Shown here in pieces: positions 3,155 to 9,138 of a DNA stretch of 10,631 nt. The translations under genes were made by a program, and so were the position numbers. The notes under the pieces were generated by a model. The model saw only the letters and a program-made list of their open reading frames with translations. It had not been told where the DNA came from and did no database searches. Numbering within the stretch: position 1 is the stretch's first letter; every line of letters starts with the position of its first letter. The stretch is from a virus (taxonomy: Duplodnaviria > Heunggongvirae > Uroviricota > Caudoviricetes), in the IMG/VR virus record IMGVR_UViG_648276652_000022. One strand, 5' to 3'.

Positions 3155-3516
3155 TATGCTCCAGCCTCCGGTGCTTTTGGCATTACTGCCCAGTGAGTGA
3201 TATTGACGTTTTCAAGGTCCCCGACCTGAAATGTCCACTGCCATTCTCCGGTTTCTTTTTGTCCCCAGGTGTACCAGAGAGAACGCCAGCCAATTAGCCA
3301 GCCTTCTCCGTTAGCATCGAATAACAAAACACTTTCATTTGCTGGTGGCAGTTCAGTTGACACTGGTATTACTTTGTTTTCCTGTGCTGCACATTTAGCT
3401 TCAAGCGCATCGAATTTACGCACCAGGTATTCAGCATCTGTTTCATTTACTTTCAGATCTCGCGGTACACATCTCCCACGAAGAAACCCTTCCATTTCGA
3501 AAACATTCATGCGCAT
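3154..3516 (-). CDS. yfdS: Prophage protein, Trp-rich C-terminus (DUF551-like), 120 aa
   Basis: 120-aa ORF; size and position after yfdR match the CPS-53 yfdS gene; C-terminal GWLIGW...WYTW...W pattern. The alternative start at 3510 forms an ATGA overlap with the yfdR stop. Confidence 0.7.
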   Translation of the reverse strand: MRMNVFEMEGFLRGRCVPRDLKVNETDAEYLVRKFDALEAKCAAQENKVIPVSTELPPANESVLLFDANGEGWLIGWRSLWYTWGQKETGEWQWTFQVGDLENVNITHWAVMPKAPEAGA

Positions 3517-5060: not shown

Positions 5061-5423
5061 TTAACGACCTGCTGCGCGGAGTTTTCCGTCAGGTTCACCG
5101 GCAAGAGTCAGTAACTGTCCCTGGTCTTCCTGCAGAATAGTCAGGCGACCACCGCGATTGACATACATCGGCGTTTCGGTGGTGTCTTCTTCGGAAATTT
5201 TCCCGCGGTTAGTCGGGCGAACATATGAGAGTTTGTGTTTGATTTTCACACGGTTCTCATCAAATGGTTCGATTTCCAGGTTGAGTGAGACCTTACCTTT
5301 GGTTTTCGTGTTCATCACACCGGAAGCGACTTCACTGAGAACTGCGCCGATTTTGGTTTCAAATACGCCGCCGTCCAGCTCCCCGATAAATGCCTGCACA
5401 TCAGTACTGCGTTCGCTAGCCAT
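5061..5423 (-). CDS. yfdP: Prophage protein, 120 aa
   Basis: Listed ORF 5061..5741 is over-extended; the internal ATG at 5423 (MASERSTDVQAFIGELDGG...) is preceded by GAGGAG 7 nt upstream and gives 120 aa, matching YfdP. Confidence 0.8.
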   Translation of the reverse strand: MASERSTDVQAFIGELDGGVFETKIGAVLSEVASGVMNTKTKGKVSLNLEIEPFDENRVKIKHKLSYVRPTNRGKISEEDTTETPMYVNRGGRLTILQEDQGQLLTLAGEPDGKLRAAGR

Positions 5424-5471
5424 TTTGCTGCTCCTCATCATATCGACCCTGCAAGGCCGATTAGTTTCTCC

Positions 5472-5560
5472 ACAAAACAGAGAAGAACACCTGCGGTGGC
5501 AGCCGCCCGGATGGATTGGGTTATGAGCCCGTCGTCCGGTGATGCTCTTCTCTGTTTTGT
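5472..5560. repeat. 15-bp perfect inverted repeat (ACAAAACAGAGAAGA / TCTTCTCTGTTTTGT) flanking a 59-bp GC-rich spacer
   Basis: Arms at 5472-5486 and 5546-5560 are exact reverse complements (checked base by base). They sit in a ~470 bp region without a convincing ORF. Confidence 0.6.
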
Positions 5561-5824
5561 AAAAAGGACGGTACCAGCCGGAAGCAAGGGTACAAACTGG
5601 TACCTCCAGGACTACACACAGCATAAAGTTGTGGTGCCGGGTGCCTCCCGGTGCCTGGCGAAGGTTGCACACCAGACGGGTGGGTATCCACAGAAGGTCG
5701 ACTGTCAGCCTCAACCTTAACCCGCGTGCGCTGAGCCGCATTCACCACAACGCTAAGGATTCTCTCTGGTTAAAAATACTTAGCTGTTATGTGCCTGCTT
5801 TTAGCCACATCAGGCGAGGTGGAC

Positions 5825-5877
5825 CTGGTTATTCCCCAACAACAAGGATTCGGTTAATCTGGTTATCCCCAACAACG
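5825..5877 (+). repeat. Two ~19-bp direct repeats CTGGTTAT(T)CCCCAACAAC immediately upstream of the 144-aa ORF
   Basis: Copies at 5825-5844 and 5859-5877 differ by one T; further CTGGTTA / CGGTTAA copies at 5766-5772 and 5851-5857. Candidate regulator-binding sites or promoter elements. Confidence 0.5.
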
Positions 5878-5891
5878 CAAAAGGAAAAGAA

Positions 5892-6326
5892 ATGTCCGGT
5901 AATATCTACACGCTGTACAAATCCCACTGTGAAAATGTTGGAAAGTATCGGGGCATTGAAATCAGTGGGGTAGTGTCATCAGTCGAAATAAGCAAAGTGG
6001 AATCAAGGGCAACATTACTTACTCTTCTGGACCTTGTCTTACATGAGCACCGGAAGAAATTCGGCACTCCCTATAATCAGTTGAATGGGAAAAAGGCTCT
6101 GGTTCACCTTATTCTGATGAAGCATCACTGGATGCCAAAACAGATTAATGAGATGAAATTTGATGAACTTCTTCTTTCAATTCAGGATGAACTCACACTT
6201 GATAAAATAAGCGTAACCGCCCAGAAATTTTTAGATTATCGAGACTGGAGATCACAAATTCATCACTTTGATGATTTTGACGAAAATGAATGGGATCCTA
6301 ATTTGTCTGCACAATATCTAAAGTAA
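5892..6326 (+). CDS. Hypothetical protein, 144 aa, AT-rich moron-like gene on the opposite strand to the surrounding early-left genes
   Basis: ATG at 5892 with AAGGA 6 nt upstream; open for 144 codons; visibly lower GC than flanking genes (by eye roughly 40% versus about 50%); acidic C-terminus (HHFDDFDENEWDPN). No family recognised. Confidence 0.7.
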   Translation: MSGNIYTLYKSHCENVGKYRGIEISGVVSSVEISKVESRATLLTLLDLVLHEHRKKFGTPYNQLNGKKALVHLILMKHHWMPKQINEMKFDELLLSIQDELTLDKISVTAQKFLDYRDWRSQIHHFDDFDENEWDPNLSAQYLK

Positions 6327-6504
6327 CATCCTGTGATAAAACCGTGATTTCCTGATCCAGTTTTTTTAAGGAGTCTATTGTTTCCTGTCGATAAGACAGC
6401 ACTTCACGAAGCTGGTTTATAGCTGCCAGCTTCTTTGCCATCCACTCGTAAATTTCCTCATTTGTGTATCCGGGCGCGACGATTTTGGGTTCTGTTTTGT
6501 GCAT
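6298..6504 (-). CDS. Hypothetical small protein, 68 aa, first gene downstream of pL
   Basis: The listed 73-aa ORF starts at TTG (6519), but TTGAGGAGG is better read as the Shine-Dalgarno GAGGAGG, 6 nt upstream of the ATG at 6504 (MHKTEPKIVAPGYTNEEIYEWMAKKLAAINQLREV...). Heptad-like, probably helical. Its 3' end overlaps the 144-aa ORF convergently by 29 bp. Confidence 0.65.
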   Translation of the reverse strand: MHKTEPKIVAPGYTNEEIYEWMAKKLAAINQLREVLSYRQETIDSLKKLDQEITVLSQDVTLDIVQTN

Positions 6505-6549
6505 TTCACACCTCCTCAAGTTATCAGTTACTTGTTGATGGGGACCAGA

Positions 6550-6561
6550 TTGTTAAAGAGC
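6550..6561 (-). promoter_or_regulatory. boxA-like antitermination element (GCTCTTTAACAA) in the pL leader
   Basis: Minus-strand reading of 6561..6550 is GCTCTTTAACAA, matching the E. coli rrn boxA consensus TGCTCTTTAACAA at 12 of 12 shared positions. A stem-loop lies 3 nt 5' of it on the same RNA, the rrn-style boxB-boxA order. Confidence 0.45.
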
Positions 6562-6562
6562 T

Positions 6563-6586
6563 AAGCGTCCTGTAGGGCGCTTTTTT
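6563..6586 (+). terminator. Rho-independent terminator on the + strand (GCGTCC-TGTA-GGGCGC followed by TTTTTT)
   Basis: 6-bp stem (one G-U pair) at 6565-6570 / 6575-6580, then a T-run at 6581-6586. The same hairpin on the minus-strand RNA is the structure upstream of the boxA-like element. Confidence 0.55.
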
Positions 6587-6671
6587 GTTGCTAACGAATC
6601 ACCCTAGACTTTATATGCCCCAGGCGGCTACTTCGTGGGCGTCCTGCCTGTTCGTTGTTTCTCTTGGGTAC

Positions 6672-6699
6672 ATTATGTATCTCATGGGTACATTGTCAA
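6672..6699 (-). promoter_or_regulatory. Leftward early promoter pL (TTGACA-16 bp-CATAAT) with embedded operator TGTACCCATGAGATACA
   Basis: On the minus strand: consensus -35 TTGACA (plus 6694-6699), 16-bp spacer, -10 CATAAT (plus 6672-6677). The 17-mer at 6676-6692 fits the T-GTAY-N7-GTAC-A dyad pattern also found at OR. Confidence 0.55.
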
Positions 6700-6738: not shown

Positions 6739-7413
6739 TTAGGCTTTGATTTTGTATCTTCTTGGTTTTCCTGAGAAAATCACAGTTCCAATTATAGAGC
6801 AATTACCGTTGATCTTAATGTAAGGCTCAGGCCAGTTTGGGTTTAACGCTTTGAGATAACGCTGTGTCCCATCTTCTATCAACCTTTTGAAGGTGGTTTC
6901 ACCTGTATCGTGCATCAATGCAATAACGTCGTCACCGTGGCAGGCTGGTACTTCAGGATCGACAAAAATCATGTCTCCCGGGCGGTACTCATCAATCATT
7001 GAATCACCTATCACCCGCAAGATATAAGTCATTTCCCCACAGGGTACAGGGCAGGGATACGTTTCTGCTGTGCTCAAATCAACCTCAGAATATCCAACTT
7101 CTTTCCATGCTCCGGCCTGTACCCATGATATGACAGGGACTAATGTGATTTGTTTATTAGTGATTGAAACATCAGGTTTTTTTGTGATGTTCGTTGTCTG
7201 GTGTTCTTGATCGAGCCATCCAACAGGCAGGTCGAAACATTTTTCGATGTGTCGTGCCATGCTGTCACCGATATTTTTAGTAGCACCATCTCCCATAAAC
7301 CTGCTGGTCTGGGTTGGCTCGCGATCAATCATAGTGGCAAAGGAAGAATTCCCGCCAACACCATCTCTCAGTTTTCTGGCGTTAGACCGCCGGATGTCAT
7401 GGATTGTTTTCAT
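6739..7413 (-). CDS. CI-like prophage repressor (N-terminal HTH plus C-terminal S24 LexA-type peptidase domain), 224 aa
   Basis: 224-aa ORF with a GDSM serine motif and downstream KRL lysine typical of S24 autopeptidases; divergent from a Cro-like gene across an operator-bearing intergenic region. Appears leaderless (the -10-like TTTAAT lies directly upstream of the ATG). Confidence 0.88.
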   Translation of the reverse strand: MKTIHDIRRSNARKLRDGVGGNSSFATMIDREPTQTSRFMGDGATKNIGDSMARHIEKCFDLPVGWLDQEHQTTNITKKPDVSITNKQITLVPVISWVQAGAWKEVGYSEVDLSTAETYPCPVPCGEMTYILRVIGDSMIDEYRPGDMIFVDPEVPACHGDDVIALMHDTGETTFKRLIEDGTQRYLKALNPNWPEPYIKINGNCSIIGTVIFSGKPRRYKIKA

Positions 7414-7428
7414 AACGAAATTAAAACC

Positions 7429-7449
7429 CTTGTACCGTTAAGGTACAAG
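7429..7449. promoter_or_regulatory. Operator OR-a: 21-bp perfect palindrome CTTGTACC-GTTAA-GGTACAAG, overlapping the putative PRM spacer
   Basis: Perfect dyad read directly; core 17-mer TGTACCGTTAAGGTACA at 7431-7447. Confidence 0.6.
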
Positions 7450-8305: not shown

Positions 8306-9138
8306 ACAGTTTAACGGCAAATAACCGTTTGTCGCAACAGCTGGTGGTCAGCGTCGCTGAACACGTGTTGTTACGGCATGAATGCAGATTACCAAATCTC
8401 CTGGCTGTAAGTAACCACAGAGAACTTTACCTGACTGTGGGGGGCGAGTTGTGCAGGAACTTAACCGCTGGTTTCGTGACGGAAGAGGACTTTATGTTCA
8501 TGTTATTCGTTGGGAGCCAGAAACACAGCGCGTTATCTATCTTCGCAAAGACTACCCGCATGAGTGCTTTAGCCCTTTGTGGAAATTCAGGCGTGATTTT
8601 GTTGAGTGTGAAGGACCACCAGCACATTGATTCTGCCATTCCGGGACGTTACACTGTTCAGGCACCTTATAAAGCGGGTGCCGGGATTGGCGTCCTGGAA
8701 TTGATCAAGGCGATATATGACGCGCCAGCGTCTTTTTTATCGTCCGCATTTGCTCACATCAAAGTTATGGTGGGCTGGGCGGGGGCATCGAAAGATGCGC
8801 CGGTTTCCTTGATCACCGGTTACGCCAACCCCGTTCAGTTCACCACCAGCGAAATTGGCGTTTCCGGTGGTGGAAGTATTTCACCGATCAAGGAGGCTGC
8901 CATCATGGCTACTGTCCCAGCCCTCACTCGTCTGAATGATGAAGACTTACATAAACTCAGTTATGTAACAACTGCACTACGTGCTCTGCGCAAGGTAACT
9001 CTTTCGGATCCGCAGGCACATCAGGTTCTGGTAGAAACCCTTCTTAACTTGCAAGCTGAACGTATTCGTCTGGCGGATAAGGCTAATTTTCATATTCACC
9101 GTCTCCTGAATATCAGCGGAGGGCATCGTCATGCTTAA
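8302..9138 (+). CDS. Hypothetical protein (278-aa frame); the 5' part may be over-called, the 3' part (about 8631-9138) looks like genuine coding
   Basis: Continuous 278-codon frame with an ATGA overlap to the upstream gene. From about 8631 the codons look like typical E. coli coding sequence (GCG, GGC, GAA, ATC, AAA). An internal ATG at 8905 is preceded by AAGGAGG 8 nt upstream. Conflicts with a well-formed small ORF in another frame (8451-8630). Confidence 0.35.
   Translation: MNSLTANNRLSQQLVVSVAEHVLLRHECRLPNLLAVSNHRELYLTVGGELCRNLTAGFVTEEDFMFMLFVGSQKHSALSIFAKTTRMSALALCGNSGVILLSVKDHQHIDSAIPGRYTVQAPYKAGAGIGVLELIKAIYDAPASFLSSAFAHIKVMVGWAGASKDAPVSLITGYANPVQFTTSEIGVSGGGSISPIKEAAIMATVPALTRLNDEDLHKLSYVTTALRALRKVTLSDPQAHQVLVETLLNLQAERIRLADKANFHIHRLLNISGGHRHA
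8451..8630 (+). CDS. Small phage protein, DUF4222-like pattern, 59 aa, GTG start, in a different frame from the 278-aa ORF
   Basis: Hand translation: VQELNRWFRDGRGLYVHVIRWEPETQRVIYLRKDYPHECFSPLWKFRRDFVECEGPPAH, stop TGA at 8628-8630. It fits the small phage-protein pattern D.RG..V.V......RV.Y.R..Y..EC..P...F...F as I recall it. Absent from the ORF track (under 60 aa, GTG start). Confidence 0.4.
   Translation: MQELNRWFRDGRGLYVHVIRWEPETQRVIYLRKDYPHECFSPLWKFRRDFVECEGPPAH

Follow-up and report, generated by a model that had tools for sequence, protein, structure and literature searches.

The 10,631-nucleotide (nt) stretch analysed here (the window; IMG/VR record IMGVR_UViG_648276652_000022) is a lambdoid prophage of the SfIV type (99.9% identity with phage SfIV at positions 5600-6400) and carries two near-identical direct repeats immediately upstream of a rightward open reading frame (ORF) of 144 amino acids (aa). 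The best explanation for these repeats is that they belong to the left edge of a “cargo bay” that is conserved among SfIV/SfV-like lambdoid prophages, a slot that always lies between the early-left genes and the repressor and that holds a different small gene from one prophage to the next. In the fuller reading, to which we assign a probability of about one in two, this cargo bay would combine a shared promoter/leader with a boxA-linked leader-trailer helix, and the two together would bracket an exchangeable antisense cassette.

Direct repeats within a conserved non-coding module

Copy 1 (CTGGTTATTCCCCAACAAC; 5825-5843, + strand) and copy 2 (CTGGTTATCCCCAACAAC; 5859-5876, + strand) are identical at 18 of 18 positions with a single 1-nt indel and start 34 base pairs (bp) apart; because of this indel, an ungapped repeat search shows the pair only as a 19-mer at 79% identity. 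The pair is beyond chance, as none of 200 dinucleotide shuffles of the whole window reached 18 matches in a gapped scan and 17 was reached only once. Copy 2 ends 5 nt before the Shine-Dalgarno sequence AAGGA (5882-5886) of the 144-aa ORF, whose ATG lies at 5892, and the initial annotation of two near-identical copies about 34 bp apart that abut the ribosome-binding site of this ORF was therefore correct. The additional CTGGTTA and CGGTTAA copies that it reported upstream are confirmed in part: five YKGTTAW motifs lie within 5767-5866, and a third, more degenerate repeat unit (CCACAACGCTAAGGATTC..CTGGTTA) exists at 5745-5773, inside the gene of an STnc100-like RNA on the opposite strand, but the motif is only weakly enriched over the window (18 occurrences against 10.7 expected, a number reached by six of 200 shuffles).

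The repeats belong to a module of about 85 bp (5793-5877) that is near-identical across loci, with DNA on either side that is unalignable between genera. Over prophages from at least 12 enterobacterial genera, the module is about 91% identical. Among 82 unique versions, every column between 5793 and about 5862 reaches at least 90% identity; the value falls to 70-90% in copy 2 and is about 50% past 5877. We refer to positions 5793-5862 (+ strand) as the near-invariant non-coding core. Compared over nine genera with the same cargo family, the core is 91% identical, versus 68% for the adjacent homologous cargo ORF and 55% for its third codon positions. Copy 1 is near-invariant in related loci, also when these are retrieved by an anchor outside copy 1. 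Copy 2 is less conserved, as its CTGGTTAT half is variable or replaced and the whole copy is absent in UTI89-type loci. When one genome per species was scanned with a pattern, 12 species contained the element, with genera including Scandinavium, Enterobacter, Buttiauxella, Atlantibacter, Kluyvera, Kosakonia, Pseudescherichia, Citrobacter and Izhakiella. It also occurs in phages of Klebsiella and Salmonella and in over 150 viral contigs. Roughly a third of the complete Escherichia coli genomes (1685 of 5426) match positions 5740-5895, 963 of them at nearly full length.

The initial annotation had interpreted the two repeats as binding sites of a regulator (an operator, an iteron or a phased promoter element) that would place the 144-aa ORF under dedicated control. 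A strongly conserved regulatory region is indeed located directly upstream of the ORF, and the repeats are non-random, lie just upstream of the ribosome-binding site and recur at homologous loci, which was the check that the annotation had itself suggested. However, the two copies are not equivalent sites: copy 1 hardly varies, whereas the CTGGTTAT part of copy 2 is free to vary, copy 2 is dispensable in UTI89-type loci, and it covaries with a complement approximately 650 bp away (see below), which argues for base pairing and against a pair of protein-binding repeats. Dedicated control does not hold either, since the module stands before at least 13 unrelated cargo genes and co-occurs with at least four types of repressor (LexA-like of 224 aa, XRE of 133-136 aa, one of 208-234 aa and others) as well as with variable genes in the cII position; the module thus serves a variable slot rather than the 144-aa ORF specifically, and is independent of immunity. 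Nor does the module resemble the TGTACC-N5-GGTACA operators of the phage repressor CI. We consider the regulator-site model very unlikely, while a host factor that binds the invariant core is conceivable.

Other functions of the module itself were also considered. Protein coding was rejected, because the frame GYSPTTRIRLIWISPTT is open in several loci but lacks a start codon, is broken by +/-1 indels between and within the copies, and is out of frame with the 144-aa ORF of the window. RNAalifold gave -7 kcal/mol for the + strand and -15 kcal/mol for the - strand with no supported helices, the GCCTG..CAGGC and CCAC..GTGG pairs showed no consistent compensatory change, and no put-like two-hairpin structure was present in the module. 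A by-eye check for CRP, LexA, sigma-54, sigma-32, sigma-E, IHF and Chi sites gave none that was in register or conserved. Copy 1 contains, by sequence, a candidate CsrA site (ACAAGGAU) and (ARN)n/Hfq motifs.

Both copies are built alike, from a -10-like hexamer (ATCCT or AATCT), GG(T/A)TAT and CCCCAACAAC. Copy 2 is followed by the cargo’s own Shine-Dalgarno sequence and ATG and copy 1 by AAGGA-N8-ATC, which parallels both the cargo arrangement and the AAGGA-N6-ATG of the e14 gene ymfI. This parallel would suit an evolutionary fossil, i.e. a 34-bp tandem duplication of “leader, Shine-Dalgarno sequence and start codon” whose upstream unit decayed (ATG to ATC) and is now a spacer only, the more so as the CT01-type and L086 variants retain an ATG at this position. 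Decay would not be expected to leave an identity of 91-95% across genera next to 68% in the neighbouring coding sequence, and we regard the fossil as barely plausible.

A variable gene slot with covarying borders

Related E. coli prophages share the left flank and then diverge at 5822 (SfV, e14), 5862 (UTI89) or 5876 (PhiR29, 2013C-3252), after which each carries a different rightward gene; on the right side, homology resumes at 6529, 6545 or 6590, where a conserved + strand terminator (6563-6582) and a motif reading GCTCTTTAACAAT on the - strand are located. The start codon of the cargo is always found 15-22 nt after the end of copy 2 (CAACAAC), irrespective of which gene it belongs to. The rightward cargo comprises at least 13 unrelated families whose function is not known, including ECs1072, a family of 171-208 aa (starting with VIAELSAA), a secreted protein of 170 aa, a Pro/Lys ORF followed by a membrane protein of 150-160 aa, and a BssS-like protein. 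The cargo proteins gave no Pfam or PADLOC match and hit only function-unknown families in PHROGs and NCBIfam, apart from one that is BssS-like. The cassette varies in presence or identity between otherwise collinear phages, as a moron does; it always occupies the same slot, and all cargo families have a single orientation in 136 slots.

The two borders of the slot are reverse complements that change together between cargo families, as a side-by-side listing makes evident. In the window, the left arm (AATCTGGTTATCCCCAACAACG; 5856-5877) consists of AAT plus copy 2, so that copy 2 forms its inner part, and the right arm is CTTGTTGATGGGGACCAGATT (6531-6551); in a leftward transcript these would be the “trailer” and the “leader” strand, respectively. 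A repeat search recovered the arms in three loci, namely the window, PhiR29 (26 nt, 85% complementarity) and UTI89 (24 nt, 79%, with the different inner sequence GGATGACT), and CT01-type loci use GTAACCCTC. Single positions are altered on both arms in further lineages (L165, L096, L147, L098, L008 and L127). In an alignment of 40 distinct arm pairs, 81.6% of the cells of a 21-pair helix are paired, compared to 27-51% when the register is slid; in ten pairs both sides have changed, and the covariation of 0.145 versus 0.112 was reached by none of 500 shuffles, although the arm sequences are related to each other and not independent, which inflates the shuffle statistics. The arm-arm duplex averages -22 to -24 kcal/mol versus -6.4 +/- 2.7 kcal/mol for an arm paired with interior segments, and a locus’s own right arm fits its left arm better than foreign right arms do (permutation p < 2e-4). 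The right arm also pairs at 13 of 14 positions with copy 1 plus AAG (5833-5846). In the window, the leader arm pairs about equally well with copy 1 (-25.0 kcal/mol) and the copy 2 arm (-24.2 kcal/mol); more generally, it pairs better with the copy 2 arm than with copy 1 (-24.4 vs. -16.4 kcal/mol). A second, outer helix between GGATTCG and CGAATCATCC was rejected, because its two sides do not covary and several loci with the left motif are without the right one.

Such an inverted repeat may also act at the level of DNA, where the arms would serve a mobile cassette as terminal inverted repeats or recombination sites (recognised by a recombinase or transposase, or used in template switching) and the direct repeat would be a scar left by repeated insertion. 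The arms flank exactly the exchangeable unit, the break points fall at a shared AATCTGG/CCAGATT, three wholesale arm types travel with particular cargo families, and the core GGATATCC is palindromic, all of which would fit. Ends that are recognised by a protein should be conserved, however, and here both arms have changed at matching positions in at least six independent cases. Moreover, the cassette was never seen outside its slot in the 12 species and more than 150 viral contigs, it was never inverted, it shows no consistent target-site duplication and is not associated with a recombinase gene, and homologous recombination in the conserved flanks explains the exchange. We consider this explanation quite unlikely. 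Two specific forms of it were rejected, an invertible segment of the Hin/Gin/Pin type on account of the single orientation, and a transposable cassette with terminal inverted repeats on account of the constant slot and of flanking bases that form no consistent duplication.

A boxA fused to the leader arm

On the - strand, the right arm is joined to an rrn-type boxA (GCTCTTTAACAAT; 6561-6549), the last 3 nt of which are the first 3 nt of the leader arm. This boxA is identical to the 13-mer in the leader of E. coli rrsH and fits the gamma-proteobacterial consensus GYTCTTTAANA (10.1101/091223). It is located approximately 105 nt downstream of the putative leftward promoter pL (see below), just after a hairpin at 6582-6563. 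Of 86 unique related loci, 74 carry this boxA, and it occurs only where the repeats occur as well; SfV, e14 and ST64B have neither. The part of the module that bears the repeats and the part with boxA and the terminator therefore travel together. Read leftward, the order is hairpin, boxA, leader arm, 500-850 nt of antisense cargo and the trailer arm, i.e. the complement of copy 2. The antisense cargo is untranslated in most loci; in the window it begins with a 68-aa ORF.

A mini-construct of the minus strand folds into the hairpin, an unpaired boxA and the helix (z = -4.5). Allowing G.U pairs gains 68 cells in the minus-strand RNA versus 22 in the plus-strand RNA, so that 81.6% and 76.2% of the cells are paired, respectively, and the minus-strand duplex is the more stable one in 46 of 58 pairs, although a C/A-rich left arm can by itself produce a G.U excess on the minus strand. 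These comparisons modestly favour a helix that would form in the leftward transcript.

Alternatively, the helix may form in the rightward cargo mRNA, whose 5′ leader (with the copy 2 arm) would pair with the 3′ untranslated end before the terminator. Closing the two ends of the mRNA in this way could stabilise it against RNase E and exonucleases, or create an RNase III site through which cargo expression would be tuned in the lysogen. Watson-Crick pairs are equally possible on either strand, the plus-strand duplex reaches -22 kcal/mol on average with a z of -3.1 for the mini-construct, the right arm lies directly before the + strand terminator, and the CT01-type C-to-T change in GGATTTGG as well as several T/C differences are wobble-compatible on the plus strand only. 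Against this, fewer cells are paired on the plus strand and fewer G.U pairs are gained there, an mRNA that starts at about 5866 would be without the outer 8-10 nt of the left arm, which are its best-conserved pairs, and a helix in the rightward mRNA gives no reason for the fusion of the arm to boxA on the other strand. We regard a rightward helix as unlikely, albeit with some observations that speak for it.

Copy 1 and the putative cargo promoter

Because the cargo needs a rightward promoter and the unit closes with a rightward terminator, the core that contains copy 1 is most likely the cargo promoter. The putative promoter P2 (+ strand) would consist of the -35 hexamer TTCCCC (5832-5837, inside copy 1), a spacer of 17 bp and the -10 hexamer TAATCT (5855-5860), so that copy 1 would overlap the -35 element and the spacer, transcription would start near 5866, and copy 2 would provide the first nucleotides of the leader. 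TAATCT is the only hexamer of the module with T-12, A-11 and T-7, which never vary in the 82 versions, and its natural variants are TATAAT, TATTAT and TAATAT. The segment that is kept in every rearranged variant extends from the -35 element to about +1, as L066 is without the left part of the module and the UTI89-type loci, L133 and L138 are without copy 2. Candidates inside the module for a minus-strand promoter of the neighbouring STnc100-like small RNA (sRNA) were only weak.

In e14 and SfV, only the left part of the module is kept, where it forms a better promoter than here by supplying the -35 element for a good extended -10 promoter (TGgTATGCT or TATCCT, score about 9) that sits before ymfI in e14 and before an unannotated 81-aa ORF in SfV. 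The latter ORF (SfV, 3262-3507, + strand) has a good Shine-Dalgarno sequence, directly follows the left part of the module and is overlapped on the opposite strand by orf33, which may be a wrong call. By Reg-Seq, the ymfH promoter of e14 was inactive in nearly all conditions, and a YhaJ site was placed near its position -55 (PMC12133099). A YhaJ peak from chromatin immunoprecipitation sequencing (ChIP-seq) and the fragment used in an electrophoretic mobility shift assay (EMSA) begin where the conserved left part ends on its right side and run into ymfI (PMC7315121 supplement). YhaJ was rejected as a regulator of the module, as the ChIP/EMSA site is inside ymfI and specific to the e14 cargo.

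The similar build of the two copies suggests how they may have arisen. A promoter-proximal leader unit would have been duplicated in tandem, with the upstream copy becoming fixed in the backbone and the downstream copy travelling with the cassettes; each cassette would thus bring its own left arm, a diverged duplicate of the backbone unit of “-10-like hexamer and CCCCAACAAC leader”.

Proposed mechanism

As read from the sequences, firing of pL would produce a leftward transcript that recruits a Nus complex at boxA, and this complex would shield the transcript from Rho while several hundred nucleotides of antisense cargo are crossed. Once the complement of copy 2 emerges, it could pair with the boxA-fused arm to give the leader-trailer helix, which would loop out the antisense cargo and perhaps let RNase III excise it, as for 16S rRNA. 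A bolder version, which we put forward tentatively and to which we give clearly less than an even chance, is that N-less lambdoid prophages copied the design of the rRNA operon, with a boxA-fused leader strand and an insulated cargo bay whose left wall is the shared promoter/leader and whose repeats are the trailer strand and its backbone paralogue.

Several observations weigh against the cargo bay with a boxA-linked helix. F1055 has the repeats without boxA and without a detectable pair of arms. In rRNA operons, the boxC sequence UCUGUGUGGG lies 18-19 nt after boxA, and this is not found in the phages, which have TCTGGTCCCC (TCTGGATATCC in most loci) without a spacer, only UCUG being shared. 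A transition/transversion test of the strand was not significant, and the matching arms could in part stem from cassettes that move with their own inverted repeats. As for the promoter, TTCCCC-17-TAATCT scores 6.4 compared to 6.8 +/- 1.8 for the best background sigma-70 match per 220 nt, and a consensus scan showed no promoter in the module interval on either strand. The approximately 70 invariant positions exceed what a promoter needs, so the core probably has an additional role, for example with a host factor or in the leftward RNA, and the separate roles of copy 1 and copy 2 are inferred only.

Cassette genes and prophage context

The cassette of the window contains two genes. The 144-aa cargo ORF (5892-6326, + strand) belongs to the ECs1072 family (NF033230, phrog_5286); ECs1072 is among the genes that change 2.1-fold at a growth transition in O157 Sakai (PMC2241611). 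The 68-aa ORF (6298-6504, - strand; phrog_1744) has the strong Shine-Dalgarno sequence GAGGAGG; the leader arm lies before it, and in the window it is the first ORF that the pL transcript would reach. It converges on the 144-aa ORF, shares 29 nt with the end of the latter and accompanies the ECs1072 family in 46 of 46 loci, which suggests that both form a two-gene cassette with a sense/antisense overlap. Another two-gene class of cargo consists of a Pro/Lys-rich ORF of 27-35 aa (e.g. MAKVERSDDRDYVEKHLPIKERPPVPPKPKDE) followed by a membrane protein of 150-160 aa (phrog_6315), and is found in the cargo slots of L015, L007, L027, L113, L128 and L145.

The hairpin at 6563-6582 can be read on both strands. 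On the + strand it is followed by TTTTTT and is the intrinsic terminator of the cargo, and on the - strand it is located just upstream of boxA, i.e. in the position of a boxB. In nearly all loci, the hairpin keeps a T.G pair (GCGTCC...GGGCGC), which is a wobble in the rightward RNA but becomes a C.A mismatch when read leftward, as though a weaker stem had been retained for the pL transcript.

The gene order of the window is tRNA gene, integrase, the early-left genes yfdT to yfdP (- strand; yfdP at 5061-5423), the intergenic region with the module, the 144-aa ORF (+), the 68-aa ORF (-), cI (6739-7413, - strand) and cro (+). The tRNA gene (1369-1441, + strand) adjoins the integrase gene (1459-2622, - strand), and this is presumably the attachment site of the prophage. 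The cI/cro operators have the form TGTACC-N5-GGTACA, the right operators being at 7431 and 7481. The putative pL (TTGACA-16-CATAAT, 11 of 12 consensus positions; - strand, promoter 6699-6672 within 6656-6699) was assigned by sequence and directly follows the cI terminator; two CI-operator-like sites over it, TGTACCCATGAGATACA (6692-6676) and TGTACCCAAGAGAAACA (6672-6656), match the right operators. A GGTACC/GGTACA cluster at 5569-5605 was rejected as the left operator, because it is the stem of the terminator of the STnc100-like RNA and pL and its operators are at 6656-6699.

This STnc100-like RNA (5559-5781, - strand) is located between the module and yfdP and ends in an intrinsic terminator at about 5605-5560. 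It aligns with the full length of the STnc100 model (RF02076), including the blocks UGGUGAAU and CACCGGGAGGCACCCGGCACCA and the terminator, with 38.4 bits (E about 6e-7) compared to a gathering score of 47. It is thus similar to the STnc100/PasD prophage sRNAs over the entire model, yet differs from them in scoring below the gathering threshold. Its 5′ hairpin carries the third, degenerate repeat unit, with a loop UAACCAG that is complementary to CUGGUUA, and its 5′ end would pair with the cargo leader at -34.6 kcal/mol versus -25.9 +/- 4.3 kcal/mol (p about 0.04), a pairing specific to E. coli. The RNA is absent in most other genera that have the module, and is therefore not part of the core function of the repeat.

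Three annotated ORFs overlap the STnc100-like RNA, namely SfIV_34 (226 aa, an over-extended yfdP; 5061-5741, - strand), SfIV_35 (5629-5973, + strand) and ymfH of e14 (2198-2509 of locus L004). The ymfH gene is marked as frameshifted in UTI89, 2013C-3252 and CT01, and all three are probably not genes. The terminator at 5560-5605 (- strand), GG(A/C)GGTACCAG...CTGGTACCG(T/C)CC-TTTTTAC, together with about 60 nt after it, is a separate module that occurs in many other lambdoid and Stx2c phages without the rest. In the early-right/replication region (8662-8850, + strand), isrK (RF01394, 64 bits) lies beside a C4 antisense RNA (RF01695, 82 bits); this pair is a secondary immunity/antirepressor control module of the P1/P7 c4 type (Gifsy IsrK-like) in an SfIV-like phage.

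Comparison with known systems

If the proposal is correct, it would explain how temperate phages tolerate genes that run against an essential early operon, despite the Rho termination and the sense/antisense clashes that are to be expected there, and it would extend Nus/boxA-assisted long-range RNA folding beyond rRNA, where the helix is essential, to mobile elements. The portable frame (module of about 85 bp, cargo, right arm, boxA and terminator) flags function-unknown accessory genes in E. coli and many other Enterobacterales, helps to correct the likely mis-annotations of ymfH, SfIV_34/35 and SfV orf33, and may be usable as a natural expression slot for engineering.

Morons of lambdoid phages are promoter-gene-terminator units that are expressed from the prophage (the Juhala/Hendrix concept). 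Like a moron, the cargo is a small gene that is variably present between conserved phage genes, lies beside the repressor, runs against the flanking operon and has an intrinsic terminator. It differs in that the putative promoter/leader and the terminator belong to the backbone, with only the ORF and the arms being swapped, and in having a covarying inverted repeat and a boxA at the borders of the slot. Temperate phages also have hotspots of defence and accessory genes, such as the rexAB position of lambda and the hotspots of P2 and P4. These resemble the slot in having many alternative small genes at a fixed position beside the immunity repressor; here, however, the slot is defined by a non-coding frame and not by genes, and the cargo is without a PADLOC or Pfam match.

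The position of boxA downstream of pL in the early-left transcript recalls lambda nutL/N and the put sites of HK022, and a recruitment of Nus factors by boxA would allow RNA polymerase to reach the distal early genes. In the phages described here, the order is hairpin-boxA, in contrast to the boxA-boxB of lambda nut. An N-like arginine-rich protein was not found downstream of pL, where the first ORF encodes a coiled-coil-like protein of 68 aa that has no Pfam match and whose N terminus is not rich in arginine. The boxA of CRISPR arrays (PMC7665894) and that of the suhB leader (10.1101/091223) are similar in that a consensus boxA is located just upstream of an untranslated RNA that is exposed to Rho, but these lack a leader-trailer helix around the protected RNA.

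The closest likeness is to the leader-trailer arrangement of rRNA operons (rrnTAC). There, the order is boxB-boxA-boxC, boxC being part of the 5′ strand of the leader-trailer helix around 16S rRNA, and the antitermination complex has been proposed to keep this strand close to the RNA exit channel for as long as the trailer has not emerged (PMC10250234). Long untranslated RNAs are also protected from Rho by boxA (PMC7665894). The phages have a hairpin, an exact 13-mer boxA and the 5′ strand of a covarying long-range helix of about 21 bp, the 3′ strand of which lies beyond a long stretch of transcript that is untranslated in most loci, and the sequence shared between the boxA region and rrn continues as ACAATCTG. 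In contrast to rrn, the context is an early-left operon, the RNA within the helix is antisense to a protein-coding cassette that can be exchanged, the arm begins inside boxA and not 18-19 nt later, and the helix is shorter than the 25-40 bp of rrn. We did not find this arrangement described in the literature searched, and its known parts, i.e. moron, boxA and leader-trailer helix, are here combined in a new way.

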